Of a stretch of DNA of 64,000 nucleotides, positions 29,735-52,229 are shown piece after piece; position 1 is the stretch's first letter; each line of letters starts with the position of its first letter. Origin of the DNA: an uncultured Coriobacteriales bacterium (GTDB taxonomy: Bacteria > Actinomycetota > Coriobacteriia > Coriobacteriales > UMGS124); the NCBI GenBank assembly GCA_934654475.1, contig CAKUFZ010000002.1:86-64085 (forward strand), written 5' to 3'. The translations under genes were made by a program, and so were the position numbers. The notes under the pieces were generated by a model, which saw nothing but the letters and a program-made list of their open reading frames with translations, was not told the origin of the DNA and searched no databases.

Positions 29735-31630
29735 CTACCTGTACTTTAAGCCTCCAAGCAAACCCTTCTTGAAGCGCTTGACCTCATTCATGAAGGGCTC
29801 GTACCCATGCTCTACGCCCAGTTTTGCCATCTCGTAGCCTCGCTCGATAGCCCCGTCGCCGGGATTGCGCATTGTTTCGTCGTATTCAAGCAAGAGAGTC
29901 ATCTGAGCAAGGTCGAGATTGTCCGAATCCCCTTGTTCGATTTGTTTGAGACTTGCATTGGCATCTGAACCCAACGCTCGGCGCGCCCACTGGCGAGAAG
30001 CGCTCTCGTTTTCACATACAAGAACAAGCATGGCAGCAGTCACGGGGTCGGGACGCATGGACCAAGATTCCTCCAGGAACCGCACTGACCTCCTCTTGTA
30101 TTCTGCCGACAACGAGGAATCTTCTCGAGACAGTTGGGCGCTGAGGCGAAAGTAGCAGTAGCCTTTTGTAAACGCGCATGCAGCAAGGGTATCGTCCAGC
30201 CCGTCAAGATCTTCGGACTTCAAAGTGTGCTGCAAATCACCGATGTTGTCGTTCTTGATTCGCTTAATCCAGCTTGTCAGCTCGTTGGCACGCACAATGG
30301 CGGGTTCATCTGCTCCGATGCCCTTTTCTGCAAGAAGCAGTATCTTCGACGCGCCCATGAATATCCTGAATAATGACGGGTCGAGCGTGCCACCACGACG
30401 GAAAGCAACGTCGAGCCAGAATGACATTGGGTCGTACTGCTCTGCGCCATCCATATTAGAGGTATACTGCATTACTGCCTTGCTTATCCTGTCTCCTTGG
30501 CCGTTGTATGCCTCAAACCACAAATCTTCATCGATATCAGTATGTCTGACGGGGGCCAAATCAAGACGAGCAAGCTTGTACATAACCTTCGATGTGAAAT
30601 TATCCGAAAGGCCGAACATTGCGCCGTGCGCGAGCAGCCTACCCATCACGATGCTGGCCTTTGTGTCACTCCGAGGCACACCGACACCGAACAGATAGAT
30701 TGCAGCAACGCGAACGTATTCTTGCCAGTCCACGGTATCTTCTGTTGTCTCAAGGTCGATTGGTGCTTCAAGCAGGGCCTGATATCGCGCATTGGCACCT
30801 CGAAGAAACCTTGCATCTTCCAGAAGACCCTGGTCATCTCCTCCATTTGCGACGGCTTTGCGAAGCAACTCAACACCCTGTTGGCACTCGCTTTCATTTG
30901 CCTGCCTGTTGATGAGACAGCAGCCGTATTCAATCATGGCATCGACGTTGCCCGCGTCGGCGGCTTGCCGGAACCAGTTTTCGGCAAGGATGTACGACGA
31001 TGTTATGTCTTCACCCGGTTTGGCATAGTTACCGGATTGGTAATGAGCCCCCAAGCCGAGCATGGCCAGACCCCTTGAGCCGTTTTCGTCCTCCATAGTC
31101 GCGGCCTTCATGAGCAGCTCGTAGCCACGCTCCATGTCTGGCTCGACGGGATAGGGACTTTGGCTCGTTAGAATCATGCCATACTTGTAGCAAGCCCAAA
31201 CGCTGCCCATCTCAACGCCGCGCTCCAACAGGCGGCAGCCCTCGTCCGGGTTTCGCTCAACGCCCCAACCGTCAAAATAGCATAGGGCGAGGTAGTAGCA
31301 TGCCGCACCGACGTGCCAGCGCTCATTTTCGGATGCAGGCTCAGCCTCGCTGGCTCGGCGCAAATGCGTTATATAGGCGTTCTTATCAACGGGAATCTCT
31401 GAGTAAAACCCGTCGAACATAAATGCATACCTGTAGTTGCCCTCAATCGATCCCTTCTGCGCAGCAAGGCCCAACAAGCAACGAACTTTTGCCAAATCTT
31501 GCCCAATCAAGCCCTCGTCGTATTGGCTCTTTATGGAGCGCGCCTCAGAGAGCAGCTTGTCTGGTTCCATGTTTTCATGTTCGGCCTTAAACCCATGCAG
31601 GTTGTATACGTCGAGGTATGAGTCATCCAT
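29735..31630 (-). CDS. Sel1-like (TPR-class) repeat protein; candidate immunity or adaptor protein of the upstream toxin
   Basis: 631 aa with several Sel1-type repeats (AACYYLALCYFDGWGVERNPDEGCRLLERGVEMGSVWACYKYG; AENWFRQAADAGNVDAMIEYGCCL; AAIYLFGVGVPRS). It starts 11 nt after the toxin-like gene. Confidence 0.7.
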   Translation of the reverse strand: MDDSYLDVYNLHGFKAEHENMEPDKLLSEARSIKSQYDEGLIGQDLAKVRCLLGLAAQKGSIEGNYRYAFMFDGFYSEIPVDKNAYITHLRRASEAEPASENERWHVGAACYYLALCYFDGWGVERNPDEGCRLLERGVEMGSVWACYKYGMILTSQSPYPVEPDMERGYELLMKAATMEDENGSRGLAMLGLGAHYQSGNYAKPGEDITSSYILAENWFRQAADAGNVDAMIEYGCCLINRQANESECQQGVELLRKAVANGGDDQGLLEDARFLRGANARYQALLEAPIDLETTEDTVDWQEYVRVAAIYLFGVGVPRSDTKASIVMGRLLAHGAMFGLSDNFTSKVMYKLARLDLAPVRHTDIDEDLWFEAYNGQGDRISKAVMQYTSNMDGAEQYDPMSFWLDVAFRRGGTLDPSLFRIFMGASKILLLAEKGIGADEPAIVRANELTSWIKRIKNDNIGDLQHTLKSEDLDGLDDTLAACAFTKGYCYFRLSAQLSREDSSLSAEYKRRSVRFLEESWSMRPDPVTAAMLVLVCENESASRQWARRALGSDANASLKQIEQGDSDNLDLAQMTLLLEYDETMRNPGDGAIERGYEMAKLGVEHGYEPFMNEVKRFKKGLLGGLKYR

Positions 31631-31641
31631 AGCATGCTCCT

Positions 31642-33252
31642 TTACAATTTGGACCCGAGGCTTATCTGACCGGGGAAAGAGATAATGCTTACTATCTTGC
31701 TATCGGGCAACATAATGTGGACTTTCGGGACAGGTTCGCCGGCCATGGCAACGCCAAGCACCTTGTTCGTTGGGACTTCGATGATGTGTGGCGTGCCTTC
31801 GCGCATGACCTTCCACGGTCCGGGGCACAAGTTGGTGAGTCCGATGTTCCCGCGCCCGTCGCCCACGCATCGAGCTATCACTTTTGCTGGGTCGCCTGGC
31901 GAGGTCAAAACGCCACCCTTCCCGAGGGGAAGGATGCGGTTGCCAATCATGGTGTCGAGGATGATGTCGTGTTTCTGCGCTACATCTGATAACTTCTTGA
32001 TGATCTCGTCGCGCGTCCCTTCCGCAGAGATGAGATCGCTATGGGGAATATTGCCGTGAATAATAGACGGTATAAGCTGCATGGTCCCGTTGTGACAATC
32101 GTGCGGCGTCAATCCCTCGGCTTTCAGAAACTCTTTAACATCGCTTTGAGTCTGGAACCAATCGTACCCCCTATCCTGCATGAATGCCACAGCACGCGCT
32201 GCAAGGTCTGGCGACAGGCAGGATTTCCCAGAAGAGGAATCAAGCATCTGTTTGTATAGCTGCCTATAGTTCTCCCCACGGTCGCCTGTTACCTTGTCAA
32301 GCTTGAACTCACCTTTAGCAAGGTTCCCCGAGAATACAAGGTACCCGTCTTGAAACCGTATGTCTATCGGGCCGTACTGTTGCTCGATTTGCCCCCAGGT
32401 AAGACCCTCAGGGTTGGACTGCGAGGGCACAAAGTTACGGTCGGGTGACCACGTTCCGCTATACGTTGAGTCTGGGCTGTCGCAAGGGTTGCCGGAAGGA
32501 TCAATCCATGTTCCACCCGTTTTGGGCATGTGCGGCGTGATTCCCAAAGACGCGCGAACAAGGTCGAGTTCCTGCGAAGACATGGATGCAATCTGGTCGG
32601 CATAGCCTTGAATGACGCCGCCCACACGCAGCTTGTCCACATCGCTTATATTGCTTGAGATAGCCGGCGACGACACACCGGCCATCTCAAGCGCCGCGCT
32701 CCCCAGACCCCCGGGATGGTTGAGGGCCGAGGTAAGCGGGCTGACTAGGGAGAGCTGCAATGGAGTTCCATCGCGAGAAGCCTCTTGGGTGATTCCAGAA
32801 GAGGGTGTCTCGCCCATCCTAATCGCTGGGGTGTCCATCAATCCGGCGCCCTCGCGAATTTTCTCAACTGCGTGCTCAAGCGTCGCGCACCCTTCACTGC
32901 GCAAGGACTCGCACCGAGATTTCAAAGAAGACATATTGCTTTCATATGTATGGGAAGCACCACTAAGAGAAGCGATTTCATTGTAGAGCTGCCTCGATGA
33001 GGAGCGAAGGCCATCGATCTGCCCTCTAATCTTGTCTCGCTCGTCTGCATCATCGGCCTTATCAAGCTTTCTTTCTAGCTCACGACATGCCGTCTCAGCG
33101 CTTTCGATCCTCTTCTCTAGTCCATCGATTGCCAATTGGGCCTCATGAAGAAGCTCTTTATTGGGTTGCAAGGGCGAGAAGTCAACGCCCCTCAATCCCT
33201 TCGCAAGCTCCTCCATCGCATCAAGACCGTCGAATACAATCGTTGTCCCCAT
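31642..33252 (-). CDS. Polymorphic-toxin-like protein: N-terminal coiled coil, central HNH/EndoVII WHH-like nuclease module (variant), extra C-terminal domain
   Basis: 536 aa. Residues 1-140 are helical/coiled. The segment IRFQDGYLVFSGNLAKGEFKLDKVTGDRGENY...GLTPHDCHNGTMQLIPSIIHGNIPHSD resembles the gyPdF...tgdR..D(F/Y)...tWHH...tMqLVp..iH....H layout of WHH-type toxin nucleases, with PHD in place of WHH. About 115 uncharacterised residues follow. Confidence 0.45.
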   Translation of the reverse strand: MGTTIVFDGLDAMEELAKGLRGVDFSPLQPNKELLHEAQLAIDGLEKRIESAETACRELERKLDKADDADERDKIRGQIDGLRSSSRQLYNEIASLSGASHTYESNMSSLKSRCESLRSEGCATLEHAVEKIREGAGLMDTPAIRMGETPSSGITQEASRDGTPLQLSLVSPLTSALNHPGGLGSAALEMAGVSSPAISSNISDVDKLRVGGVIQGYADQIASMSSQELDLVRASLGITPHMPKTGGTWIDPSGNPCDSPDSTYSGTWSPDRNFVPSQSNPEGLTWGQIEQQYGPIDIRFQDGYLVFSGNLAKGEFKLDKVTGDRGENYRQLYKQMLDSSSGKSCLSPDLAARAVAFMQDRGYDWFQTQSDVKEFLKAEGLTPHDCHNGTMQLIPSIIHGNIPHSDLISAEGTRDEIIKKLSDVAQKHDIILDTMIGNRILPLGKGGVLTSPGDPAKVIARCVGDGRGNIGLTNLCPGPWKVMREGTPHIIEVPTNKVLGVAMAGEPVPKVHIMLPDSKIVSIISFPGQISLGSKL

Positions 33253-33283
33253 GGCGCTCTCCCACGTCGAATCCTAAAAGCTG

Positions 33284-33562
33284 TTAGCAGCTTTCCAGAA
33301 TGTGTCCTCCTTCTTCAAAGCAATCGGCGGAATAGAGCAGTTGCTTCTCGACTGAACCCGCATCGGGAAGTGCGTTCATAATGTTATCGAGGTAGTTTTT
33401 AAGAGCAGCAAGTGCGACAAGACCTTCCCTAAAAGGCATTACAGTCTCCGCGGCATCCACAAGCCCTTTTGCAACACTACAGGTTGATTCGAGATCCTTG
33501 GCGAATTTGTCTACGGTTTGGGCGACCTCACGGATACCTTCGACATCCCACGTTATGCTCAT
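33284..33562 (-). CDS. Small (92 aa) predicted helical protein, unknown family
   Basis: The ATG at 33562 is preceded by a strong RBS, aaggagg, 6 nt upstream. The sequence MSITWDVEGIREVAQTVDKFAKDLES... has helix-favouring composition. No WxG motif is present. Confidence 0.6.
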   Translation of the reverse strand: MSITWDVEGIREVAQTVDKFAKDLESTCSVAKGLVDAAETVMPFREGLVALAALKNYLDNIMNALPDAGSVEKQLLYSADCFEEGGHILESC

Positions 33563-33601
33563 ATCAATCCTCCTTGAAATCCGATTTTTGCCTTGCAATG
33601 T

Positions 33602-33871
33602 CTATGCGATGCCGGCACCCGCCTCCAGAGCGTCGGCTGCCTTGTTCAAATTCACGCACGCCGCCTCTGTCAAATCGGTTGACGACTTAATGGTGAGGTC
33701 GATTTGGTCGCAGACTTCTAGAATTTTGTCATAAGCAGGACATTCAAACATGTCCCCCAACCCCTCGGCAGCTTGCTTGAAATTTTTTGCCATATCGGAA
33801 ATCTCGGGCATTATCGTCGAGAGTGCCGAGGCAAGGTCGCGTATTTCTTGCGGCTCAACTGTAGCTGGCAT
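33602..33871 (-). CDS. Small (89 aa) helical protein, WXG100-superfamily/EspC-like by size and composition
   Basis: The ATG at 33871 is preceded by ggag. The sequence is MPATVEPQEIRDLASALSTIMPEISDMAKNFKQAAEGLGD...LNKAADALEAGAGIA. It resembles a helix-turn-helix hairpin with a central G-rich turn. The family call is inference. Confidence 0.5.
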   Translation of the reverse strand: MPATVEPQEIRDLASALSTIMPEISDMAKNFKQAAEGLGDMFECPAYDKILEVCDQIDLTIKSSTDLTEAACVNLNKAADALEAGAGIA

Positions 33872-34094
33872 ATTGATGCTCCGTTCTATCGTCAACGCCT
33901 GTTCCGTAACGTTCCAAAATCTGGCAGAACCCCTCGGTCTGTTCTCTTGCCTCCTCAATCAACTCAAGCATCGGCTTCACCTTGTTTTCTTGGAATTGCT
34001 CCGCATACCTATCCTGCCAAGCTGCTTCCGCTTTACCCCAAATGTTTCGGATGTCCCCCTCCAGGCCCAAAAGCTCTTCACCTACCAAAGCCAT
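33855..34094 (-). CDS. Small (79 aa) helical protein overlapping both neighbours
   Basis: The ATG at 34094 lies 10 nt upstream of the stop of the FtsK-like ATPase gene, and the gene end overlaps the next start by 17 nt. The sequence is LGLEGDIRNIWGKAEAAWQDRYAEQF.... Confidence 0.5.
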   Translation of the reverse strand: MALVGEELLGLEGDIRNIWGKAEAAWQDRYAEQFQENKVKPMLELIEEAREQTEGFCQILERYGTGVDDRTEHQYASYS

Positions 34095-37000
34095 TCCGAC
34101 CCATCCCTTTCGTCTTGACCGGTTGGTGAAAAGCTGCCCGGGAGTGCGGCAGATTCTTTGGAATCCGGCTCAGTCTCTAAGGGTTTTGCCACCTCGAGAG
34201 GTATGGTCTTGGCCACAGTCTCAACTACGTAAGGTCTGAAGAAAAACTCATGGCCGCTTGGGGTGTGATACACCATCTTGATTTTTGCCTCTTCGGGTTG
34301 GAGCGACGACGCGTTTGATTGCATGCCGATGCTCACCAGCTTCATTCGATCGGCATGCGTCGCAAAACGATGAGCAAAAAGTTCCGCCATATCCAATCCC
34401 CTTGCACCGAGAACTTTGTTGAGGTTTGGAACGGACGTAGAGAGCAAGCATATATGGACGTTGTTCAATGGCCCCCATTGAATCACACGGGCTATCAGCT
34501 CGCGTGCATCATCGGGCGAAGTCTTCGCTTCTTCGCTCTGACCTTTCTGGTGGTTTTCATATCGCACCATTGCCGCGCTTAAGGTGCTAACGCTGCTCGG
34601 CTGTTTTTTCTGCATTGACCTCTCAAACTCATACTGTGCCCTACTCATTTGCTGGCTCAGCTGCTCAAGACCCAAAACAACGATGAGCACGGGTGTTGAG
34701 GAGGCGAGATTACCCTCTTCAGCCCGACGGAAGAGATTGGCAATGGATGTTAAGTCGGTCATCTCTTCATAGTTGGGGAATACATCTCGAAGCGTCTGCC
34801 ATTTTGTTTGCGCAAAGCGCCAAGTCGGGTCGTTCTCAGGGGCAACGACAACGACACGATATCCAAGGCCCTGCTTCGAACAGGCTCCGATGATGGTCGT
34901 CTCCACCAAGTCGAAGGCAAGGTTCATCTCCGGATCAAGCACAAAGATGTTTTGTCCAATATTGCTGTTCAACGCGATTCGCAGGGTGGGATCAACAAAA
35001 CTCGACTTTGATCCTATAGGAACAAGACGAGAGCCCATGATATCAGTAGTCATTCGCTGACAATACTCGGTCCATGTAGGAGCGTCACGGCGAGTCGCAT
35101 CAAGATATTCAAATCTTTCATCCCAAGCTTTGCATGCATCGCCCAAACTTGCCCTGATCCTTTCGTTCGATGCGCACATCGCTTTGTCTTCCACGCATCT
35201 GGTGACACAGCGTATAGGCTTATGCCCGCCATGTTGGATGTAAGCATCGCCCTTCCCTAGAATCTCGAGGTCGGAAGAGTAAGTGGACGAAACCATCGCA
35301 CAAGGCTCTTGCCCGTTGGTGCCCCATGCCAAAAGCACGCGATTCGTCATGTTCGTCTGTACTGTCTTTTCGCCAAGCGCTTGAAGATTTGGGCCGTCTG
35401 TAAGACTCTGGTCGGCGATAAGGACATGCATGCCGTAAGCGCGGCATTCCTTAATCAGGTTCTGAAACTTGCGACTGTAGTTTGAGCTGTCATCTTTATT
35501 TAAGCGTGTGGCAGCCATAACGGCAGCCTGAGCATGAAACTCGTCAATTACCACCAAGAGGTACCGCATGTGCTCCAAGCCCAATTCGGGGTGCTTGGCA
35601 ACATAATAGTTGTATTCATTGATATCCCTGGCACTGGGGACGTTCTCCACCATGAGGGTCTGGCGATTTTTCATCTCGACATCATAAAGACGGTCGATGG
35701 CCACCTTTATGAAGTCCTCGGATGTATCGATTGCGACAAGTCCTATATGCGGGAAGCGCTGGTCAACATCCCTCAGACCCGCAAAATCGCTGCGCTTGTA
35801 ATCAATAATCCAGATTTCAAGGTCATCTGGAGAGTAGTGCGTGCAGGCAGCCTCGATGGCATTACGCAAGAAATACGTCTTACCGGACCCCGTCGTTCCC
35901 GTCACAATGCCATGTACATTCCCGCCCAGGTCAAAGCGCAACATGACGGCATTACCAAGCTCGTCGACAGCCACGGGCAGCTCTATGGCCTCTTCGATCT
36001 TGCTTACCTGCACATGAGCCAAATCAACAACTTCCGTCGGGTTGGCGGCATCACGCTTTTCCTGCGCCTTCTGCACGCTCAGCACAAGCTCGTCTGAAGT
36101 AAGGGCGGAATTGATGGGGTTGATGGGCTTGCAGCCACGGCCGGGGATATCGATGAGGTATCGTGCGCGTCCAGCTTGCGGATCCCAGCTCTCTGTGATG
36201 TTCGTCATGCTTTCGCGCAAAGCTCGCAGTCTTTCGTCAAACTTCTCGTCACCTCGCAGAGCGCTGCCGCACGAGACGAGCACCTGCACTCCGAGCCGCT
36301 TGCCGTCTCTGACGAACGATTCGATGAGGTCGAGGGTCCTAGTTCCAAAATGCTTGTTGGATAAGTCGTTTATCACAACAATCGTCTGCGGAATCGCCTT
36401 CACTGCATTGGCCCGCGCGTTGTATTTTCGCAGGCTTCCAAAAGACGCAATGGCAGGGCCAAGGTCTCCTGTGCGGTTCTCGAGAACGGTATTCATCCTT
36501 CCCGTATCTTGCTCAGTCGAGGCGACCTTAATGATGGTGTCCTCCCGGCGCTCGATACGGGATGACAGGTCGGCAAGCTTTCCCAAAGAGAGGCCGGCGT
36601 TTGTGGGGTCAAGCCAGTAAACCTCGAGGCCGCCCAAGGGCGTGCAACGGATGGCCGTGGACACAATGGCTCGCATCCAGGCGAGTGCCGCCTCTTTGTC
36701 GTTGTCTACCGTGAACCAGCATCCCTGGAGGTTGTCCCAATCAAACGAATAGGGTACGTAAAGGTCGACCCCAGCACCTTTTGCCTCGACCATGCCTATC
36801 GGGGTATACCGAGGAAACTCTGTGACTTGCCTGATTGCACCGAAGTCGGCGTTGCCCAGCACTTGCACGCGATTGGCAATCTCGGCACGACATTGATAAC
36901 CTATACGCTCGGACTCAGTATTTGATTCCAACCGCGCCCTAAGGTGTCGCCTGTCCTCCTCATACTTTGTCTCCAGGTTGCGAAGCTCCCTTGCAATGGC

Positions 37001-37675
37001 CTGAGATGCCGATGTGTCAATCGCTTGGGCATCCGCACGCCGCCGCGCGTCCCTCTCCGCCTCGGCATGCTTTGCGCTCCATTCGTTTTGCAGCACACGT
37101 TGGCGCTTCTCCGCATCGGCTTGCATCGAACGCTCATCTCGATCGATGCGTTTCTGCTCATCTTGCACCATAGCCTTCAGCAAAGAGCACGCCTCATCAC
37201 GCTGCATTGTCCCTTTGAGGTGGAAGAGGCGCTTGAGCCACGTCAAAAAAGATATGTCAGCCATTTGAGCCAGAAGGACTTCAAGCTCTGAATCGGAGGT
37301 GTTTCTTGCGTCTTGAATATGTTTCGGCCATATGGGGGTGTTCGCAAGGTCACCCGGGATGCGTGCAAGGACCCTGGAACAGCGGTCTCGACGATCTTGC
37401 ACGGCACGACGCTCACTCTCAATCTCTGTTGAGAGTACTTGGAGACGAGCGTTGTATTCCCTATCAATCTCGGCAACGCCCTCAACCTGAGGATGCGCCA
37501 GCCGAGCGGCAAGGCTCGCCTCGATGCACTCTGCCTCGCGCTTGCGTCTCATGCAGTCGCTGCGCCTCTCCTCGTATTCCCTTGTGAGGCAATCGAGCCT
37601 TAACTGTCCGTCGTCTGACGCCGTTGCAAAGCCATCGATGCGCGAGGCAATCATCTCGTAGAACTCATCGACCAT
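34082..37675 (-). CDS. Atypical FtsK/SpoIIIE-family ATPase: coiled-coil N-terminus, three P-loop-like modules with only the middle one intact, no TM segment
   Basis: 1197 aa. The middle module has Walker A GIVTGTTGSGKTYF, Walker B YLLVVIDEFH and an FtsK-type RAYGMHVLIADQS. The flanking modules keep beta-strand/Walker-B-like strings (TIVVINDLS; VLIVVLGLEQL) but have no GxxGxGK[ST]. The first roughly 300 aa are E/R/A-rich coiled coil. I saw no hydrophobic helix. Confidence 0.75.
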   Translation of the reverse strand: MVDEFYEMIASRIDGFATASDDGQLRLDCLTREYEERRSDCMRRKREAECIEASLAARLAHPQVEGVAEIDREYNARLQVLSTEIESERRAVQDRRDRCSRVLARIPGDLANTPIWPKHIQDARNTSDSELEVLLAQMADISFLTWLKRLFHLKGTMQRDEACSLLKAMVQDEQKRIDRDERSMQADAEKRQRVLQNEWSAKHAEAERDARRRADAQAIDTSASQAIARELRNLETKYEEDRRHLRARLESNTESERIGYQCRAEIANRVQVLGNADFGAIRQVTEFPRYTPIGMVEAKGAGVDLYVPYSFDWDNLQGCWFTVDNDKEAALAWMRAIVSTAIRCTPLGGLEVYWLDPTNAGLSLGKLADLSSRIERREDTIIKVASTEQDTGRMNTVLENRTGDLGPAIASFGSLRKYNARANAVKAIPQTIVVINDLSNKHFGTRTLDLIESFVRDGKRLGVQVLVSCGSALRGDEKFDERLRALRESMTNITESWDPQAGRARYLIDIPGRGCKPINPINSALTSDELVLSVQKAQEKRDAANPTEVVDLAHVQVSKIEEAIELPVAVDELGNAVMLRFDLGGNVHGIVTGTTGSGKTYFLRNAIEAACTHYSPDDLEIWIIDYKRSDFAGLRDVDQRFPHIGLVAIDTSEDFIKVAIDRLYDVEMKNRQTLMVENVPSARDINEYNYYVAKHPELGLEHMRYLLVVIDEFHAQAAVMAATRLNKDDSSNYSRKFQNLIKECRAYGMHVLIADQSLTDGPNLQALGEKTVQTNMTNRVLLAWGTNGQEPCAMVSSTYSSDLEILGKGDAYIQHGGHKPIRCVTRCVEDKAMCASNERIRASLGDACKAWDERFEYLDATRRDAPTWTEYCQRMTTDIMGSRLVPIGSKSSFVDPTLRIALNSNIGQNIFVLDPEMNLAFDLVETTIIGACSKQGLGYRVVVVAPENDPTWRFAQTKWQTLRDVFPNYEEMTDLTSIANLFRRAEEGNLASSTPVLIVVLGLEQLSQQMSRAQYEFERSMQKKQPSSVSTLSAAMVRYENHQKGQSEEAKTSPDDARELIARVIQWGPLNNVHICLLSTSVPNLNKVLGARGLDMAELFAHRFATHADRMKLVSIGMQSNASSLQPEEAKIKMVYHTPSGHEFFFRPYVVETVAKTIPLEVAKPLETEPDSKESAALPGSFSPTGQDERDGSEWLW

Positions 37676-37708
37676 GACAGCATCACCTTTCCCTTGTACT
37701 AGTGTGCC

Positions 37709-38952: not shown

Positions 38953-38963
38953 ATGTCCTCTCC

Positions 38964-41900: not shown

Positions 41901-42098
41901 ACCGATTGATGTATCGAAATCAATCGTATAGCTCATCTGTGTTGAAGCATTACTCACAACAACGGTTTGATTGGGGTCGGCCTCAAAACAAAAGCCCTCG
42001 TCTGCCAAGGCGGCCGTCTGGTTTGACTGCGCCGCAGTTGCTGAATAGCGCATCGCCGAGGTGCCAGACTGAACCATTGGGACGGTCTCAGATGCCAT
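38964..42098 (-). CDS. Giant Ser/Thr protein kinase with a large middle region and a polytopic C-terminal membrane domain
   Basis: The start is taken at the ATG at 42098, 8 nt after aaggag and 1 nt after the PP2C stop (the ORF track starts at 42140). The Hanks kinase motifs are IGSGGYARVFGA, YAAKI, HRDVKPSN, DFN (in place of DFG) and QPESDWYAFG. The C-terminal roughly 300 aa hold about 7-8 hydrophobic helices. Confidence 0.85.
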   Translation of the reverse strand: MASETVPMVQSGTSAMRYSATAAQSNQTAALADEGFCFEADPNQTVVVSNASTQMSYTIDFDTSIGSGGYARVFGARDNEGNEYAAKISLRDRDARHNSDYQRVIKELLDITGDPSNGGCQSTHLMPIYAFESKAINVQTSDRPGWHEELAYVAVMPICSRLDEKPLEKGYLKRCVISDAATALHFLHERNIVHRDVKPSNLFVYDGCVVLGDFNISSFVEGGAEGQKFGYTTTQRATVGYSIPGVPVQPESDWYAFGYTIWTLYNDGKHPYQSLIEANDQLALQRIALSGSRDVPFQPTSDEDKYLGRLIYGLTYRDHKKRLGFEAVMSWVDKPESITWVDPDDGETGWSYQFEGKTYTNFAELAEALSNNWSVALRQFSRGYISQSFVGDGQIDAADALDTYRNSSESSNLGLAKSIWYLSGNRYLLCWEGKDVSFTNLIANIDNPEVSKELLAKDLLASGLLSWAAEQQGSGVEAILSPWQTEDQLSDGKRYVIEKLRGIEKVAAQLDDGGDASFARLLFKNTFSANYTDSLTMCQNANKLFELCSSTPYRFYQTIASKDAYRSMLSVAYRFTDADSLLGMLKAYPNDSAPSDDLTRGHELLVLATEALCFFEGLVESKDVVREFYINYGPIGPWVWTARHADMYLRMAEGSSAPTRLHWSCDTITKGLGSSVAQMAHDGFEQTAHTCVQRIEANLEELPLRHYYGVSSEKNVTVSEDDGFFCARFYGETVPRGFVRDIFTASRRDMTGTAEWDGVCLVEASQGDSRDKNFEKIIMELQMRMREQCESKAGYLLGSILLLVAFAVCGTVMAPSLFEFLVLLGLPEGFDYVLAFGTFVSAVTYFAYASFYYLGRQRLSGKYRGLDKDLKQLSQTYNEDIRAYGEKTSPFYMRLADQNASLPVVSYGYSSTVALLDKNLHESQGLHNSGHWAMWGMSTILPMMLAGGLIALGVWEWIETSTSYSNRFATGMVIGFLLWLVGLWYANSKSWCGPHFWLAMVLLPPVFCLAAVFVILIVGGILTIAAGILALVLGIVVIVSLLDS

Positions 42099-42099
42099 C

Positions 42100-42900
42100 C
42101 TATGACTCCTTTTCATCGATTGGGGTCGAAATCTCGACAAGCATCACACTTATGTTGTCATCTGAACCGCCAACCAAAGCAGCATTAAACAGACTTACCG
42201 CCTTAGTCTGCAGGTCGACGTCGGCACCTTTGAGCATCTCTTCAATCAGCTGATCAGGCACGCCCTCGGTCAGACCGTCTGAGCAGAGGAGAAAGATGTC
42301 GTTTTCAAACACAGGCCATGCCTTTGAAATATCGACGATGTCCCACCCCGGGCCAAGTCCGAGTGCGCGCAGGATAACATGAGCTTGATTGGTTTGCGCC
42401 CACTCAATCTGCTCTTGAGGCGCATGGATGCTTTCGAGCTGTTGCACAACTGAATGGTCGCCCGTCTGCCGCGCAAGGAAACCGTTACGCATCCGATACA
42501 CGCGTGAATCCCCGGCGTGGAATGTAACGAATTCTCCCTTGGCAATCGCAATTCCAGCCGTGGTCGTTGCCATGGATGTCCCACACCTCCATGACGCGGA
42601 TGTCGCACTCATCTCGCGACTCGTCTGAGAGAGCACCGCGCAAGCCGCCTCGGCCAGACCCCGCGCATCACACCCGGCGTCGACTTCAAACCCCGCGAGA
42701 GCCTGAGCAGCGAGAGAAGATGCCTCGGCACCATGCCCTCCCGCGCTCACCCCGTCGAACACGGCCAGAAGGGTGGGTTCCTCGACCTCGATGCAGCACG
42801 ACCCTGAGGCAAGAACTCCCCCGCCTATGAAAAGCCTGTCTTCGTTCGTTGACTTCACCGCGCCTTTGTCGGTAACGGCGGCGACCTGTATCACAGCCAT
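42100..42900 (-). CDS. PP2C-family Ser/Thr protein phosphatase
   Basis: 266 aa with TDKGAVKSTNEDR, LAVFDGVSAGGHGAEAS, LCSDGLTEGV and GGSDDNISVMLVE. Confidence 0.88.
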   Translation of the reverse strand: MAVIQVAAVTDKGAVKSTNEDRLFIGGGVLASGSCCIEVEEPTLLAVFDGVSAGGHGAEASSLAAQALAGFEVDAGCDARGLAEAACAVLSQTSREMSATSASWRCGTSMATTTAGIAIAKGEFVTFHAGDSRVYRMRNGFLARQTGDHSVVQQLESIHAPQEQIEWAQTNQAHVILRALGLGPGWDIVDISKAWPVFENDIFLLCSDGLTEGVPDQLIEEMLKGADVDLQTKAVSLFNAALVGGSDDNISVMLVEISTPIDEKES

Positions 42901-44873
42901 GCGGAAGCTCCCGTCTCCGTGGAATACACAATATGCCCTCCCTGAGCAGAGGCGTAAATCGTCGCGCCCTGCGGCACTCGCATATCAAATAGGTACTCGG
43001 CAAGCGTGTTGAGGTATTCGGACTCGATGTAGTTGGCGATGCCTCGACCGCCCTTCTCTTTGACATCGGTGGAAAGCGAGGCCTGAACGATTTGGTCGAA
43101 GCAGGTCTGGTCAACCTCGACATGTACACCCTGCTGCTTGAATACGGCATGGTTGACCTGGTCGACTTTTTGGCGGGCAATGAGGGCAGCAGAGGCGTCG
43201 TCGATGTAGTCGAACACAACGACGTTGTTGCCGATGCGACCCAGAAACTCCGGCTTAAACGTCGCCTTCATCGCGGCCATTACTTTGTCGCGCACCGCAT
43301 CGTATGGCTCACCGGGACCGATAAGCGTCTGGTGGTCCACCACATGGCGACCCGACGCGTCATATACCTCGCGTGAGAAACCGATATTGCTCGTAAAGAA
43401 AATGAGCGTCTCGCTGAAATAGACCGTTGTGCCCTGCCCGTCGGTCATACGCCCGTCTTCCAATATTTGCAGGAACTTGTCCATGATGCTGGGAGAAGCC
43501 TTCTCCACCTCATCGAACAGCACGACTGAGAAGGGGTTTGCACGCACGGCGTTGGTCAGTTGACCGCCTTGCGAGTAGCCCACATACCCCGGCGGTGCAC
43601 CGAACAGCTTTTGGTCGGAATTGTCCCCCTGATACTCAGACATGTCGAAACGCAGACAGCTCCGCTCGTCGCCAAAAAGCATCTCAGTGACTGCTTTCAC
43701 TATCTCGGTCTTGCCGGTACCTGTTGGACCGCTGAGGAAGACGACGCCTTTAGGCTTGCCGCCGCCAGAATGCGTGGCCCCCGACAAACCCAAGACGGAT
43801 CGCTTGAGAACCGACACGACGGCATCGACGGCCTGGTCTTGCCCTTTGACTCGTCTACGAATGACATCTCCGGGGTCATGCTCGAGCTTCTCGAGCATCG
43901 TAGCCCACTTGTTTTCCTTGAGACCGTATTTATACACGTCAACCAGTGCAGCGAGATCGGAGGAACCCTGGGTATCGCGGCCGTGCATGCGCCTAAGCTC
44001 GTCAAGCTCCCGCAAGGTCATGGCGTCGGTCATGTCGACGAAACGCTCCGTTTCCGACTTCTCCCCTACGACGAAACCCTCGGTTGGCAGGCTGGGCGGA
44101 ATCATCGTCTGCACATAGAGCTCGCGCGTCGCCCTGTCAGGGTTGGGCACTGTGACAACACGCATGTTGGGATTGCCGTTTACAAACCAATCAGGCAGGT
44201 CATTGCGGCGGCTTGCAACCAGAATGAGGGTATTGCGATCGCTGGACGACCCATCGGGCGAACATACGCGCAAGGCATCGCTTGCCGCAACAAACAGGTT
44301 AGTGAAGAACGCCGTTTCGTCTGGGTCGAGATGCGAAGGCGAGGTGAGAACGCGCGACGCCATGTCGACGACAACGGCAACAGGTTTAGCGACCGGGTGG
44401 CCCGGCTTGTTTCCTCCCAGACGAGGGCCGCCTCCCCCGTCGAGCTGCAACGGGCTTGCAAGGAGCGCACGTATGAGGCGTGAGTCTTGAACAAGGTCGC
44501 TCACCTGGCTGGATTGCGTCTGACGGGCATGCCCAAACGAGTTGACCCTGTCGGATTCCGCCTGCATATCAGCCGCCGCACGGCCTGCTGCCGCAAGATA
44601 GCGCTCGACATCAGATTCCTGGAACATATTGGTGAAACGACGCAACGGGTCGTAATACACGAGCTGATACTCGCCCGATGCGGCATCCTCCGAAAAGACC
44701 GCATGGAGCAGCTCGTTGAGTGTCAAGAAGCCTGCCTGTGCCACGTCGTCAATCGCGTCGCCACCGTCCCAAACAGGATACAGGTCGTTGACGTTGCCCT
44801 CAAAGAGAAAGAGGCTCTTGATGCCCTTGAAGTTGCGCAGCTCGCGCTGCCACTGTTGCCTCTGAATGCTCAC
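42891..44873 (-). CDS. AAA+ ATPase with a ClpA/ClpB D2-like module and a degenerate N-terminal module
   Basis: 660 aa. The C-terminal half carries VKGQDQAV..FLSGPTGTGKTE (Walker A), VVLFDEVEKA (Walker B), PPGYVGY and FTSN. The N-terminal roughly 300 aa lack a P-loop. The GTG start overlaps the upstream stop (GTGA) and is preceded by gggagg. Confidence 0.75.
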   Translation of the reverse strand: MSIQRQQWQRELRNFKGIKSLFLFEGNVNDLYPVWDGGDAIDDVAQAGFLTLNELLHAVFSEDAASGEYQLVYYDPLRRFTNMFQESDVERYLAAAGRAAADMQAESDRVNSFGHARQTQSSQVSDLVQDSRLIRALLASPLQLDGGGGPRLGGNKPGHPVAKPVAVVVDMASRVLTSPSHLDPDETAFFTNLFVAASDALRVCSPDGSSSDRNTLILVASRRNDLPDWFVNGNPNMRVVTVPNPDRATRELYVQTMIPPSLPTEGFVVGEKSETERFVDMTDAMTLRELDELRRMHGRDTQGSSDLAALVDVYKYGLKENKWATMLEKLEHDPGDVIRRRVKGQDQAVDAVVSVLKRSVLGLSGATHSGGGKPKGVVFLSGPTGTGKTEIVKAVTEMLFGDERSCLRFDMSEYQGDNSDQKLFGAPPGYVGYSQGGQLTNAVRANPFSVVLFDEVEKASPSIMDKFLQILEDGRMTDGQGTTVYFSETLIFFTSNIGFSREVYDASGRHVVDHQTLIGPGEPYDAVRDKVMAAMKATFKPEFLGRIGNNVVVFDYIDDASAALIARQKVDQVNHAVFKQQGVHVEVDQTCFDQIVQASLSTDVKEKGGRGIANYIESEYLNTLAEYLFDMRVPQGATIYASAQGGHIVYSTETGASAWL

Positions 44874-45472
44874 ACTGCCTCCCTCGCATGCATGTCCGAC
44901 GGGCGGTCGTGGATTCCGACCGAGATTGCACGGTTCTCAAACACGAAGTTTTGGACCCATCGCCCCTGTCTCATGTACTCCGCATACTTCCGCCGCATCT
45001 TCTCGTTGAGGAAGTTGACGCGTTGGTTATCTGAACCGCGCAAGGCAAGCCCAGCCACGTTGCGCGCGGCGATATAGGGCCCGTCTATAAGAACGTCAAC
45101 GCATGTTCGCAGGCGTAGCCAATTCGCATGGGACAGACAGCGTTGAGCTTCTTCGAGCGTGTAGCCCGTATACAAAAGGACATCGTCATAGACGCTGCGG
45201 ACGGCCTCCAGGCAATCGAGGAGCTCGTCGGGTTGCTCAAGGGGGTCTCCGCCGGTGAGCGTAAGCTCGTGGCAACCATAGGACTCGCCGACATCCAGCA
45301 GGTAGCGAGCGAGGCCGCCCGGTGGCATTTCCTGCGCCTCGGTAGATGTCCACAGCTCGGGATTTGCGCACTCCGCACAACGCTTGGAACAGCCCGCCGT
45401 CCATATCACGGCGCGCCTCCCCGGCCCCAACGTCTCGACAGGGTAGAGAATCCTATCCACGCGCATCGTCAA
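44870..45472 (-). CDS. NrdG/PflA-like radical-SAM activating-enzyme homolog (orphan)
   Basis: 200 aa with ETLGPGRRAVIWTAGCSKRCAECANPELW (CX3CX2C directly before N-P-E-x-W) and LTLTGGDPLEQ, as in anaerobic RNR or glycyl-radical activases. No NrdD or glycyl-radical enzyme is in the window. Confidence 0.65.
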   Translation of the reverse strand: MTMRVDRILYPVETLGPGRRAVIWTAGCSKRCAECANPELWTSTEAQEMPPGGLARYLLDVGESYGCHELTLTGGDPLEQPDELLDCLEAVRSVYDDVLLYTGYTLEEAQRCLSHANWLRLRTCVDVLIDGPYIAARNVAGLALRGSDNQRVNFLNEKMRRKYAEYMRQGRWVQNFVFENRAISVGIHDRPSDMHAREAV

Positions 45473-46490
45473 ACTCTCCTTTGCGCCGCACGCCCCACAC
45501 GGGGCGCACGCGGGCTATGCGCCTCTTGTCCATAATGTCCACGCAACATGGGCAGGAAGCGAGCCGCGAGGACTCGCCCTCCACGAGAAAGCTGTGACCG
45601 CAGCCACCAGGTGGGCAATCGATGAACCAGCCTTCCACCAAATCCGACGCATCGGATTCAGAACCGCCGGAACAGGCCTCGACAGAAGACGGGTCCACAT
45701 TTGAACAAGCGGTTAGACCTTCATCAAAAGACGAGCCTGCACACGTAGCCAGTGCCGGAGCGTCGGACGCTTGTTCCCCATCGCCAGGTACAACCCGCTT
45801 TGAGGAAGAAGCATTGGCGGCCACACCCAAAGGCTGGATATGAATTCGAAACGAAATGTCGGCCATGCGGAGTGTATCGCCATCATGGATGGGAGAATCG
45901 AAGTCGCGACCAAGGTTGATGCTGCCGTTTGGTGTAAACAAGACGGAGGGGTTGCTGCCGGCATGCATGGCAGACCAGCCGGCGCCATAGGGCTTGAACA
46001 GCACATGGGTTCGGCTGATGTGCGCACAATCGGCAAGAACGTCAGACCCGAAGTCGCCTTCACGCCCGACAAAGCCGCCATGAGGACCGATTTCGATAAC
46101 AGCCCCTGTACTCAGCATTTCGAGAAAGAGCCTGGTCGGAGCATCGCTAGCACGCCCTTGGATCGAAGGCGAAGGCATCGGGCTGGAGGGCGAGAGCACT
46201 TGCCCAGCGCAAGGCGAGGGACGGGATGCCGGCTGAGGCGCCTCATGGGCTCCAGATGACGGGCTTTGGCAGGAAGCCAATGGTGGGCAATCCCAAACAG
46301 GTTCCAATGCCTCGGGCTTATATGGTTGAGACTGAAAACGAGGCTGGGATTGGCACTGGGAAACGGAACCCGGTCCAGATGGTTGCCCCGTGCCAGACGG
46401 GCTTTCTACCTGACGTTCGTTGGAACATACCAGGCAGATGTCTGCCCCATCCGGGTTTTCAGTACCGCAAAAAATGCACGTCCACGCCAT
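45453..46490 (-). CDS. FHA-domain protein flanked by N- and C-terminal zinc-ribbon-like motifs
   Basis: 345 aa with N-terminal WTCIFCGTENPDGADICLVCSNE and a P/S/Q-rich linker. The FHA core is FVGREGDFGSDVL..ISRTHVLF..GSNPSVLF. The C-terminus carries CPPGGCGHSF...CPCCVDIMD. Confidence 0.7.
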   Translation of the reverse strand: MAWTCIFCGTENPDGADICLVCSNERQVESPSGTGQPSGPGSVSQCQSQPRFQSQPYKPEALEPVWDCPPLASCQSPSSGAHEAPQPASRPSPCAGQVLSPSSPMPSPSIQGRASDAPTRLFLEMLSTGAVIEIGPHGGFVGREGDFGSDVLADCAHISRTHVLFKPYGAGWSAMHAGSNPSVLFTPNGSINLGRDFDSPIHDGDTLRMADISFRIHIQPLGVAANASSSKRVVPGDGEQASDAPALATCAGSSFDEGLTACSNVDPSSVEACSGGSESDASDLVEGWFIDCPPGGCGHSFLVEGESSRLASCPCCVDIMDKRRIARVRPVWGVRRKGEFDDARG

Positions 46491-46493
46491 GCC

Positions 46494-47915
46494 TTACTCC
46501 GCCTGCCTCTCGACAAGGTTTTCGTCTTCGTAAAAACCAGTCCTGCGACGGCCCCGTGCTGCCTGTGACGGAACAGTCGACTGACCGCAAGTTTGGAAAG
46601 ACACCGAGTTGGACTCGGAAGCGGGCTTATCAGCCGTCTTATTGAGAACAACTCCGTATTCGGCCAGCTCCTGTGACAGCTGCCCAAAGAGGGTGCAGAA
46701 CTGTTGCTGTTGCATCACAAGCTGACGTCTCTCCCACTCGCCTTGCGCAGCGACTCGTTCGATGACCATACCGTCGGGTCCCTCTGCCAAGCCTGGCCCA
46801 TACGAGGCGGTTTCCATCATCACGGCTCCTTGCTGTGGCGAGACGGCAACGTGAATCGCCGTGCCCTGGCTCTCATCGAGATATAGGGAGTGAGGAAATG
46901 CCCCCTGCGAATTAGCAAGGGAGGCAAGCTGAACCGAGCGTTTGACGTTATAGCCATGACGTGCCATCACCTCGTCGATTGCATGGGCGATATAGGCGTT
47001 TCGTGCCGCGCAATCCGCCTCTTTATACAAGGCGTCGCGAAGCTGAGAAAGCATATCGGCGTCTGTCATTTGCCAAAGAGGAGGCAGGTCCGTCGATTGC
47101 ATGTCGAGGGCGTCGCACCGAGCCTTCAAAGCACGGCACTCGTTGTATAGGTCCTCAACCAGCGCGACCTCTTTACTGAAATGGCTGATGAGGCTTTCCC
47201 CGATATTCAGCCTGCCTCGCATCTCTAGGAGGCGTTCCTCGGGATGGGCCGCATAAGCGTCAGCCGTCGCCTTGAGGTCGTCGACATATTTCATGAGAGC
47301 GGCAAGGTGACGCTCCGAAAGCGCGCCGCTCAAAGCAAGTTGTTGAAACGCCGCCCTCTGCTTGGATGCCCGATCGAGCAAGTCATTCAGTGGCTGCACA
47401 TCACCGGCCGATTCTTTGAGGTCCTGAAGACGCCGAAGGACGAGGTCGACGCTGCTCAGAAGTGGTGTGCATGGCTTAGTTTGCTTGACATCGAGGTTTT
47501 CGACGAACTCCATGGCCCTTTTTGTTCGGTCCTCCTGGCGCAAGTAAGCGCCCTCCGCATCGCGCATTCCAAAGGAGATGTCATCCACGCGCCGCCGAAA
47601 GTCGTCAAGCTCCCCGTTCAGCTTCTTTTCGAGCCAATCGTTGTACTCCACAGCCTCCATGACCTCATCGGGATACTTCTCTGATGCAAGACGCGCGAAC
47701 CGCGCCTCAAGTTGACTTGTCATAGAAACGCATCTTTGAAGTTCATTTTCTCCCCAAGCACCCATTGCCCCAGCACGGCGCATCACACCGTCCGCAATGT
47801 CATGAGCCTTGCGGCATGCGCCTTTGACAATCTTGGTATTGCGGTCACGTTGGGCCTGCAGCTGTGCCAGCCTGTATGACTCAATCTTCATCAACCCAGA
47901 TTTAGGACCGCTCAT
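46494..47915 (-). CDS. Hypothetical protein, first gene of the operon (helical N-terminal half, unknown family)
   Basis: 473-aa ORF that ends 3 nt before the next start. About 380 nt of non-coding DNA and a terminator lie upstream. I recognised no motif. Confidence 0.6.
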   Translation of the reverse strand: MSGPKSGLMKIESYRLAQLQAQRDRNTKIVKGACRKAHDIADGVMRRAGAMGAWGENELQRCVSMTSQLEARFARLASEKYPDEVMEAVEYNDWLEKKLNGELDDFRRRVDDISFGMRDAEGAYLRQEDRTKRAMEFVENLDVKQTKPCTPLLSSVDLVLRRLQDLKESAGDVQPLNDLLDRASKQRAAFQQLALSGALSERHLAALMKYVDDLKATADAYAAHPEERLLEMRGRLNIGESLISHFSKEVALVEDLYNECRALKARCDALDMQSTDLPPLWQMTDADMLSQLRDALYKEADCAARNAYIAHAIDEVMARHGYNVKRSVQLASLANSQGAFPHSLYLDESQGTAIHVAVSPQQGAVMMETASYGPGLAEGPDGMVIERVAAQGEWERRQLVMQQQQFCTLFGQLSQELAEYGVVLNKTADKPASESNSVSFQTCGQSTVPSQAARGRRRTGFYEDENLVERQAE

Positions 47916-48842: not shown

Positions 48843-48893
48843 AATTTTCACCTTTCGAGCATGCCTTCGAATAAGACTTCTTTGCCGACCCGC

Positions 48894-50180: not shown

Positions 50181-50329
50181 TCTCTCTCCCGAAAACCATT
50201 CGGACAATTTTTCAAATATAGATTAGGCATTGTCAAACCCTTGCAACACCTCGCAACCGAAATGTCGCGTTTATGTTCCAAGTCGTTGGACATTGAAACT
50301 CGCGCACAATATGGCAATCAGGGACCTCA

Positions 50330-52225: not shown

Positions 52226-52229
52226 ATTT

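Follow-up and report, generated by a model that had tools for sequence, protein, structure and literature searches.

The subtypes T7SSc-j of type VII secretion systems (T7SS) were defined by Garrett, Higginson and Palmer (2024; PMC11217815). Their ATPase is membrane-bound and contains four nucleoside triphosphatase (NTPase) domains, and a WXG100 protein is encoded in each of them, though no clear candidate is available for T7SSi; a ubiquitin-like protein is present in all subtypes but T7SSd (PMC11217815). Many of these loci also carry genes for a membrane kinase, a phosphatase of the PPM type and an FHA protein encoded separately, to which T7SSf adds an AAA+ ATPase, and the candidate toxins adjoin small WXG100-related partners and immunity genes (PMC11217815). 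The hosts of T7SSd are Olsenella and Bifidobacterium (PMC11217815). Here we describe a 14-gene locus (g1 to g14 in transcription order; positions 29735-47915, minus strand) in a stretch of 64,000 nucleotides (nt), hereafter the window, from an uncultured Coriobacteriales bacterium (contig CAKUFZ010000002.1). The locus is best seen as a type VII-like phospho-regulated toxin locus (unit B, g7-g14) grafted onto an undescribed, widely conserved cassette (unit A, g1-g6). Because T7SSc-j loci with kinase, phosphatase and FHA protein were described in 2024, a phospho-regulated type VII-like locus is not a new idea, so that an earlier note on this DNA, which did not recognise the gene combination as a described system, was right only in part: what is new here is the ATPase without a membrane anchor and the cassette with its radical-SAM and AAA+ enzymes.

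This analysis established how the genes are ordered and how far that order is conserved, which domains they encode, that unit A stands without unit B in other genomes, to which families the ATPase is related and to which nuclease family the toxin belongs. The 14 genes, with lengths in amino acids (aa), are the following.

46494..47915, minus strand: g1, first gene of cassette A, a 473-aa cytoplasmic helical protein with an MSGPK N-terminus and a basic C-terminal tail
45453..46490, minus strand: g2, a zinc-ribbon / FHA / zinc-ribbon protein (weak DUF7577 zinc-ribbon match)
44870..45472, minus strand: g3, a radical-SAM enzyme of the NrdG-like activase type, about 200 aa long and bearing a CX3CX2C motif (Fer4_12 2.8e-28, 99 bits; Radical_SAM)
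42891..44873, minus strand: g4, a 660-aa AAA+ ATPase (AAA_2 6.6e-50; ClpB_D2-small)
42100..42900, minus strand: g5, a PP2C (Stp1/IreP-like) Ser/Thr phosphatase (PP2C_2; Stp1_PP2C 5.5e-35, aligned end to end with Stp1/IreP)
38964..42098, minus strand: g6, a 1044-aa Hanks-type Ser/Thr kinase with a C-terminal polytopic membrane domain (Pkinase 7.3e-20)
38308..38952, minus strand: g7, a single-pass membrane protein with an extracytoplasmic YARHG domain (YARHG 1.2e-9; transmembrane segment at about residues 27-45)
37709..38317, minus strand: g8, a polytopic VTT/DedA-like membrane protein, lineage-specific (VTT_dom 31.7 bits, under the 33.9-bit cut-off)
34082..37675, minus strand: g9, a 1197-aa FtsK/SpoIIIE-family ATPase of the EccC/EssC type (FtsK_SpoIIIE 2.5e-15)
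33855..34094, minus strand: g10, a small protein of 79 aa (60-68 aa in relatives), with an orthologue in the same position in loci L001, L002 and L096
33602..33871, minus strand: g11, an 89-aa candidate WXG100-superfamily helical hairpin with a central conserved G..F.CPAY motif
33284..33562, minus strand: g12, a 92-aa second candidate WXG100-like partner, from the matches of its orthologues
31642..33252, minus strand: g13, a 536-aa four-part toxin candidate (residues 1-140 helical/coiled coil, a linker, about 235-420 nuclease, 420-536 tail)
29735..31630, minus strand: g14, a 631-aa cytoplasmic Sel1-repeat protein, candidate immunity protein or inhibitor of g13 (Sel1 1.3e-14)

All 14 open reading frames (ORFs) were found in the ORF list and translations where the earlier note had placed them, and its junctions were reproduced without exception: in transcription order a gap of 3 nt, overlaps of 20, 4 and 10 nt, gaps of 1 and 11 nt (the latter between g6 and g7), an overlap of 10 nt (g7-g8), a gap of 33 nt (g8-g9), overlaps of 13 and 17 nt, and gaps of 39, 31 and 11 nt. 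The 20-nt overlap of g2 and g3 depends on a TTG start of g3, with an ATG two codons further in. The 1044 aa of the kinase were counted from the ATG at 42098; its maximal ORF has 1058 aa and starts from a TTG. The packing is thus operon-like, as had been claimed, and nearly all of the domain assignments made in that note held in profile searches. Matches above the Pfam/NCBIfam thresholds were obtained for Fer4_12/Radical_SAM (g3), AAA_2 and ClpB_D2-small (g4), PP2C (g5), Pkinase (g6), YARHG (g7), FtsK_SpoIIIE (g9) and Sel1 (g14). A hydropathy scan for transmembrane segments gave none in g1-g5, g9, g13 and g14, one in g7, several in g8 and about four to five in the C-terminus of the kinase.

The division into two units followed from the distribution of the genes. 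The order g1-g6 was found in more than 85 other loci, belonging to Collinsella, Adlercreutzia, Slackia, Atopobiaceae, Oscillospiraceae and metagenome-assembled genomes (MAGs) of Treponema. Around relatives of g4 it was seen in Slackia heliotrinireducens, an Oscillospiraceae MAG, a Treponema MAG, an Atopobiaceae genome and a metagenome contig, and every cassette gene in the Slackia, Oscillospiraceae and Treponema loci was significantly homologous to its counterpart in the window. A scan of the GTDB species representatives with the family-specific N-terminal domain of g4, followed by local profiles of g1-g14 on the loci retrieved, gave 80 loci, the majority from Collinsella and the others from Adlercreutzia, Eggerthellaceae, Enterorhabdus, Coriobacteriaceae, Atopobiaceae and Oscillospiraceae; g1-g6 were in order in essentially all of them, and likewise in L094 and L095. 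The profiles of g7-g14 gave no match in cassette loci outside L001-L004, and no FtsK-like, small-helical or toxin gene lay within 10 kb of the more than 85 other cassette loci. Since g1-g6 were kept across three phyla without g7-g14, the locus comprises two evolutionary units. The earlier note had read all 14 genes as one system in which the kinase, phosphatase, FHA, AAA+ and radical-SAM genes were supplied for secretion; the co-occurrence check contradicted both points, because these regulatory genes co-occur elsewhere without g7-g14 and form a pre-existing cassette. Kaur et al. (2020; PMC7159879) was the one paper that literature searches on the domain combination of the cassette brought up, and the combination is not described there. 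Cassette A is old, widespread and so far unnamed, and no description of it was found.

Cassette A varied between lineages in the phosphatase and in the genes that follow the kinase. The PP2C gene was missing in the Adlercreutzia group (Adlercreutzia, Eggerthellaceae, Enterorhabdus: L013, L025, L071, L083-L087), in which the kinase gene directly follows the AAA+ gene. The kinase gene was followed by genes for small single-pass proteins in Slackia and Adlercreutzia, whereas Treponema had a polytopic membrane protein of 510 aa and L094 had proteins of 289 and 1942 aa at this place. Unit A was present with conserved neighbours in approximately 50-60 Collinsella species-level genomes; in 48-54 Collinsella loci (among L015-L082; e.g. 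L037 16305-20210) the kinase was followed by four genes without a Pfam match, of about 208, 418, 301 and 359 aa, so that the conserved cluster in this genus comprises at least ten genes. Genes with TIR domains were located a few genes from the cassette in 8 of about 55 Collinsella loci (e.g. L037 20223-20972) and, together with an NB-ARC/TPR protein, immediately upstream of it in a Treponema MAG (L009 2417-7200). In L095 the cassette was flanked by a KAP NTPase and an IS110 transposase.

The first protein of the cassette, g1, had no match in Pfam, NCBIfam or PADLOC, and its homologues held the same position in the Slackia, Oscillospiraceae and Treponema loci. Residues M1, S2, G3, P4 and K5 were invariant in alignment A4, which spans Coriobacteriia, Oscillospiraceae and Treponema and hence three phyla; the Collinsella proteins differed, with MSGSVGD in place of MSGPK. 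The basic C-terminal tail ends in REMR and was conserved as well (window 46494-47915; L005, L007, L009, L011, L014, L089). Such conserved free ends suggest that g1 may be recognised by the AAA+ or the radical-SAM enzyme. An AlphaFold2 (AF2) model of g1, with a mean predicted local distance difference test score (pLDDT) of 77, showed long helices over residues 6-319 and a small alpha/beta domain at 324-420; a Foldseek search of this model against the PDB gave nothing at E <= 0.001, and a profile search of the PDB returned Ala/Arg-rich repeat noise only. For g2, Pfam made no FHA call on the window protein, and the zinc-ribbon/FHA assignment of the earlier note was sustained through homology to PF00498 proteins in the same position in L007, L009 and L094. 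The radical-SAM enzyme g3 was 43-47% identical across the three phyla and carried a cluster motif, read from the sequence, of C-SKR-C-AE-C. Its best NCBIfam match was NrdG, at 91 bits under the 126-bit cut-off, covering profile positions 13-151 of 154. No Gly_radical or PFL-like domain was found in g1-g14 or in the conserved set of the cassette loci in other taxa; a PFL gene in L094 was an unrelated neighbour on the opposite strand.

In g4, residues 370-650 formed an active ClpB/ClpV D2-type module with intact Walker A and B motifs and a GYVG pore loop. Residues 336-650 aligned with ClpB 561-852, and the D2 module matched TssH at 3.6e-66. Residues 1-345 constituted a family-specific N-terminal domain that was conserved within the family, lacked a Walker A motif and was without a Pfam or PDB match. 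From its motifs NTLxLV and PNPDR, we read it as a possible degenerate AAA-like tier. The g4 family included more than 120 full-length clusters at 42-60% identity. The kinase g6 carried HRD and DFN motifs and the beta-3 lysine. Its cytoplasmic middle region, for which a PDB profile search was negative, was conserved, with homology extending to about residue 834 in Slackia, and the membrane topology of its C-terminus was common to all Coriobacteriia versions of the cassette.

Unit B is lineage-specific and resembles a type VII secretion effector locus in its layout, which is that given in the earlier note: an ATPase, small helical proteins, a nuclease toxin and a downstream cytoplasmic repeat protein. 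The whole 14-gene order was kept in L002-L004, with 86% identity of the ATPase, and in L001, with 54%. Identities in L001 ranged from 88% for the AAA+ protein down to 34-54% for the ATPase and the small proteins, with the ATPase and the kinase at 54-60%. On a 2.9-kb contig from another sample series (L096), the C-terminus of g9 was followed by the small genes, all three of them, and then by the toxin, as in the window, with identities of about 35%, and L091-L093, from the same GAIO21 sample series as L096, contained g1-g6 with a 70% identical AAA+ protein. This conservation of gene order is more than chance.

The ATPase g9 had EccCa, EssC and EccCb as its top three NCBIfam matches, all under the trusted cut-offs. 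Its top PDB matches were EccC 4nh0 (8.6e-18, 66.6 bits), EccC5 and YukB, compared with 3e-5 (25 bits) for FtsK and 5e-3 for a conjugative coupling protein. By these comparisons, g9 belongs with the type VII secretion ATPases and not with conjugative coupling proteins or the cell's own FtsK, which supports the type VII reading of the earlier note on this point; the scores show affinity to the EccC/EssC branch of the FtsK/SpoIIIE family and not orthology. Two remote homologues, P0004 and P0005, were encoded beside Pfam WXG100 genes. The family is rare: among 5.8 billion proteins there were three close clusters (97, 86 and 54% identity), followed by remote EssC/EccC-like proteins, and a scan of Joint Genome Institute (JGI) metagenomes with the g9 alignment gave no relatives. 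The protein lacked an FHA domain and the FtsK alpha and gamma domains, and began with some 250 aa of coiled coil; no other part of its AF2 model was confident. By our own reading, Walker-B-like strands may be present in residues 286-545 and 851-1160. A genuine FtsK is encoded elsewhere in the window.

16825-20250, minus strand: chromosomal FtsK with FtsK_alpha, FtsK_SpoIIIE (206 bits) and FtsK_gamma

Given this true FtsK, g9 is a second, divergent member of the family and not the cell-division translocase.

Two genes for membrane proteins stand between the kinase and the ATPase. The first, g7, was found in the window and L001-L004 only. YARHG is presented (PMC3355149) as an extracellular domain that is hypothesised to bind peptidoglycan and is often associated with kinases. 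The label 'YqaA-like' that g8 had received came down to its sub-threshold VTT/DedA match. The first of the three small proteins, g10, had no match in Pfam or the PDB. For g11, WXG100 was the top Pfam match of three orthologues, nearly full length and sub-threshold (E 3e-3, 7e-4 and 0.015), and a family profile including the most diverged orthologue had Staphylococcus aureus EsxA (2vs0) as its best PDB match, over the full length, at E 0.027. For g12, WXG100 was the top match of the L096 orthologue (E 0.002, full length) and WXG100_2 that of the L001 orthologue (E 0.018); no PDB sequence match was found for it. A motif A-[D/E]-x-hydrophobic-x-x-G(A/G)G was shared by g11 (residues 73-88), g12 (73-88) and g13 (120-137), where it closes the helical region (in g13 the N-terminal one), at the same positions in L001 and L096. 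The only profile-profile matches among these proteins fell on it (E 0.013 and 0.002), and comparisons of g10, g11, g12, the N-terminus of g13, g1 and g9 revealed no homology beyond this short terminal motif, which might serve as a recognition signal.

The toxin candidate g13 was itself sub-threshold for a nuclease call (19.2 bits), which leaves the 'nuclease-like toxin' of the earlier note to be carried by its homologues. Residues 235-420 matched 147 proteins in a library of 1.84 billion, mostly at their C-terminal ends, and the catalytic-type motif H-D-C-H-N...N..H was read from the sequence, with HDCHNG...HGNIPH conserved. Because the sampled homologues passed the Pfam WHH and Colicin-DNase cut-offs (e.g. 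P0160, 52.7 bits each), g13 carries an HNH-type nuclease toxin domain. The tail of 115 residues (420-536; 31642-32000) was almost invariant between relatives differing by 46% in the ATPase and was absent from the 147 nuclease-domain homologues. Overall, the C-terminal two thirds of g13 were far better conserved than the helical N-terminus; both this and the presence of the tail are unusual. A PDB profile search with the g13 family returned coiled-coil noise only. The idea of an EAD9 adaptor was rejected, as g13 reached 22.6 bits against a cut-off of 25 in the window only and the match was absent in the L001 and L096 orthologues; the N-terminus of g13 also had no similarity to g9, so the NTPase and the effector share no EAD. 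The Sel1-repeat protein g14 had no transmembrane or signal-like segment in the hydropathy scan and always directly followed the toxin (L001, L002); this position is the ground on which an immunity role is proposed for it.

The locus lies within a low-GC stretch (GC, guanine plus cytosine) of about 25.7-52.3 kb, in which the genes have a GC content of 0.46-0.61 compared with 0.63 in the flanks; the 14-gene island itself has 0.54-0.56. GC was slightly lower in unit B than in unit A, both in the window (0.538 vs. 0.561) and in the GAIO21 contigs (0.60 vs. 0.65). Housekeeping genes occupied both flanks, with recA, the true ftsK, RNase J and pnp on one side and miaB, dnaJ and lepA on the other, and no integrase, relaxase or tRNA gene was found at the borders of the stretch. 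Scans of the locus for promoter and terminator consensus sequences gave nothing above chance. The remaining features of the stretch are listed below.

51393-52271, minus strand: LytTR response regulator of a cluster resembling those for ribosomally synthesised and post-translationally modified peptides (RiPP-like cluster), at one end of the low-GC stretch
50439-50948, minus strand: 169-aa protein of no named family, RiPP-like cluster
48894-50207, minus strand: radical-SAM/SPASM peptide maturase (best NCBIfam matches of the TIGR04463, Clo7bot and CefB types)
48660-48851, minus strand: 63-aa Cys-rich ORF beside the SPASM maturase, a candidate precursor peptide
27945-29525, plus strand: 526-aa AAA-ATPase_like and PDDEXK_9 nuclease-superfamily protein, converging on the end of the operon and in the same place in L002 and L003
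25329-27838, plus strand: histidine kinase split over two adjacent ORFs, a SPOB_a-type dimerisation part and an HATPase_c_5 part, at the other end of the low-GC stretch

The RiPP-like cluster (48660-52271, minus strand; GC 0.46-0.51) is situated directly upstream of the operon. The same two histidine-kinase genes were present in L002, with 311 and 314 aa, and the window's 521-aa histidine-kinase ORF probably runs too far, across rpsO. This histidine kinase and the LytTR regulator stand immediately upstream of g1 in the relative L092 (123-2352), and for this reason the two-component system may control the cassette.

We give about an even chance to the locus being a chimera of two units that are co-transcribed in this lineage, with unit B as a type VII-like toxin module. 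In such a chimera, the kinase g6 and the phosphatase g5 would set a phospho-threonine mark that is read by the FHA/zinc-ribbon protein g2, and g4 would act as a ClpB-D2-type threading ATPase with an inactive N-terminal tier. The EccC/EssC-type ATPase g9 would have lost its membrane anchor, with the coiled coil in its place, and would be brought to the membrane proteins g6, g7 and g8 rather than anchoring itself. The small proteins would bind the helical N-terminal region of the toxin g13, and the resulting complex would be recognised by g9, possibly through the shared A-[D/E]-x-hydrophobic-x-x-G motif. Export would be gated by the kinase/phosphatase/FHA switch of unit A, and the cytoplasmic g14 would neutralise the toxin inside the producer. 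Export, immunity, the control of unit B by phosphorylation and a substrate for the radical-SAM enzyme are inferred. In favour of the proposal count the occurrence of g1-g6 alone in other taxa, the short junctions from g6 to g9 and the gene order kept in L001, the presence of both units in the GAIO21 series, the type VII affinity of g9, the WXG100 signal of g11 and g12, the nuclease domain of g13 and the shared motif; T7SSc-j loci offer a precedent for such regulatory genes and for small WXG100-related partners beside toxins.

A number of observations weigh against this proposal, several of them concerning the ATPase. No transmembrane segment was found in g9 or in P0001-P0002, and P0003 had one marginal segment near residue 926, which does not amount to an anchor at the N-terminus; two segments each, at about residues 205-260, were seen in P0005, P0006, P0008 and P0009, which are remote EssC-like relatives. 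As the earlier note had said, g9 is free of transmembrane helices and FHA domains, and every described type VII subtype has a membrane-bound ATPase. It has one recognisable NTPase domain, with an active P-loop at 566-830; internal repeats were not detected, hhalign between segments being not significant, and the AF2 model (pLDDT 38.5, from a 4-sequence alignment) was unusable for counting P-loop domains. Also in agreement with that note, no Pfam/NCBIfam match to EssA/EssB/EsaA or EccB/EccD/EccE/MycP was obtained, and TsdH and TsdI were likewise unmatched among the 14 proteins, none of which had a YukD/EsaB-type Pfam match. No WXG100 match reached the curated threshold (27-bit cut-off), and g11 and g12 have no WXG motif. 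The nuclease domain of g13 is not at the extreme C-terminus, and the N-terminal 210 residues of three g13 orthologues gave no LXG match, only coiled-coil noise. A 631-aa Sel1 protein is unusually large for an immunity protein. Finally, more than 85 genomes carry unit A but not unit B, so the link of unit A to secretion may be incidental.

The anchorless ATPase is also what speaks for a different explanation, in which all of the locus serves anti-phage defence or abortive infection inside the cell: through the membrane kinase and the FHA switch, unit A would sense infection or envelope damage, g9 would act on DNA or a protein complex, and the nuclease g13 would be held by the Sel1 protein g14 until triggered. 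We regard this as rather unlikely. The kinase and ATPase domains matched the MAD6, MAD8, SspH and HerA models, the AAA+ domain matched the candidate defence models PDC-M37B and DolB, and the low GC of the island would suit a defence locus, as would the TIR genes near unit A in Treponema and Collinsella, the KAP NTPase and IS110 element of L095, and the post-kinase genes, which differ between lineages like swappable effectors. However, these model matches were limited to generic kinase and P-loop domains, and no whole-system PADLOC match was obtained. Furthermore, g9 is nearer to EccC than to DNA-pumping FtsK and has remote relatives with a link to WXG100 genes, the small proteins resemble WXG100 proteins, and the conservation of unit A with its neighbours in Collinsella is more lineage-core than patchy. 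Membership of the MADS system (Maestri et al., bioRxiv 10.1101/2023.03.30.534895), of which MAD6 and MAD8 were the best PADLOC matches of kinase and ATPase, was rejected, since the locus lacks MAD7, the methylase (methyltransferase) and the specificity subunit.

That unit A is found alone elsewhere could also mean that the two units are functionally unrelated neighbours. Unit A would then be a housekeeping envelope or stress signalling device of strict anaerobes, and unit B an orphan locus of type VII-style substrates with an accessory ATPase, or a self-contained toxin-immunity island, that was inserted downstream and is read through. The extreme rarity of unit B and its ATPase family and the slightly lower GC of unit B fit such an insertion, but the junctions of 11, 10 and 33 nt around g7 and g8 leave no intergenic room for a promoter or terminator of its own, consensus scans for these being at chance level. 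Moreover, the unit A/B junction was kept in L001 at 54-60% identity, and every lineage in which unit B has been met so far also carries unit A; we consider simple adjacency unlikely. Far less probable still, and in our view close to negligible, is that g9 is a conjugative coupling protein or the DNA translocase of a mobile element. Its FtsK/SpoIIIE-family P-loop domain and the low-GC island would be compatible with such a role, but no relaxase, type IV secretion or integrase gene was present among the 14 genes or in the scanned flanks of the island, coupling-protein structures matched g9 far more weakly than EccC did, and an FtsK with alpha and gamma domains is encoded separately. A further proposal, which we hold to be doubtful, concerns unit A itself: it may be a new, widespread machine of anaerobic gut bacteria, in which a kinase/PP2C/FHA switch controls a threading AAA+ ATPase and a glycyl-radical-type radical-SAM enzyme, both acting on the MSGPK protein, with Gly3 of its disordered, invariant N-terminus as a possible radical site and with interchangeable output modules that differ between lineages. 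In the present lineage, the output would be a new type VII-like export route with a soluble motor recruited to the membrane by the switch.

If the export of the toxin by a type VII-like unit B is true, the locus would be the first type VII-like system with an EccC/EssC motor that is not integral in the membrane, and it would bear on how such motors are docked and gated. Of the two parts of the locus, cassette A is the greater surprise and has the broader relevance. Many members of Collinsella, a genus common in the human gut, possess it, and yet it is nameless, with a first gene that has no Pfam family, and its combination of a radical-SAM activase and a ClpB-type unfoldase under Ser/Thr phospho-control is unexplained. 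The tight co-directional packing hid two evolutionary units, and neighbourhood conservation therefore needs to be checked gene by gene.

Beyond the T7SSc-j subtypes, parts of the locus recall several described systems. The membrane kinase, PP2C phosphatase and FHA reader beside a ClpB-family AAA+ protein resemble the PpkA/PppA/Fha and ClpV/TssH proteins of type VI secretion; this is an analogy only, since type VI structural genes are absent and g4 has neither the ClpV N-domain nor an active D1 tier. Compared with the ClpB/Hsp104/ClpV disaggregases, in which two active AAA+ tiers are joined to an N-domain (and, in ClpB, a middle domain), g4 aligns with the D2 tier alone. The CX3CX2C motif, size and profile of g3 are those of the glycyl-radical activases NrdG and PflA, but its score lies under the NrdG cut-off and the cassette contains no glycyl-radical-domain protein. 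The EAD NTPase conflict systems of Kaur et al. (2020; PMC7159879) differ in that no EAD is common to g9 and g13. The LXG toxin/Lap/immunity modules of T7SSb (Klein et al. 2024; PMC10801868; discussed in PMC11217815) have in common with unit B a toxin gene with two to three genes for small helical proteins directly upstream, a helical toxin N-terminus joined to an enzymatic C-terminal part, and a producer-protecting gene thereafter. Unlike those modules, unit B has no Pfam LXG, DUF3130 or DUF3958 calls, the nuclease is followed by an extra 115-aa domain, and the putative immunity protein is a 631-aa Sel1 protein.

From the T7SSc-j systems, the locus differs in several components. Its ATPase has neither transmembrane helices nor FHA domains and one recognisable NTPase domain instead of four; a protein that passes the WXG100 threshold, a ubiquitin-like TsxB and a large surface protein like TsdI are all missing; its FHA protein lacks DUF6382, and its AAA+ protein is ClpB-D2-like and not TadZ-linked. 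It also includes a radical-SAM enzyme and the MSGPK helical protein, and the cassette to which it owes its kinase, phosphatase, FHA and AAA+ genes is in most genomes independent of type VII genes. Because the ATPase lacks the membrane anchor, the locus was not filed in any T7SS subtype and is described as working like one. The closest subtypes are T7SSd and the kinase/phosphatase/FHA-bearing T7SSe and T7SSj, although it fits none of T7SSc-j. What it shares with them is an EccC/EssC-type ATPase of the FtsK family, small proteins, here candidate WXG100 relatives, beside a nuclease toxin that a candidate immunity gene follows downstream, a Ser/Thr kinase in the membrane whose active site is intact, accompanied by a PPM/PP2C phosphatase and a separate FHA protein, and a single-pass membrane protein, g7, which resembles TsdH in topology only. 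With T7SSf it shares an AAA+ ATPase in the locus (TsfV), and with T7SSd a Coriobacteriia-related host among the Actinomycetota.

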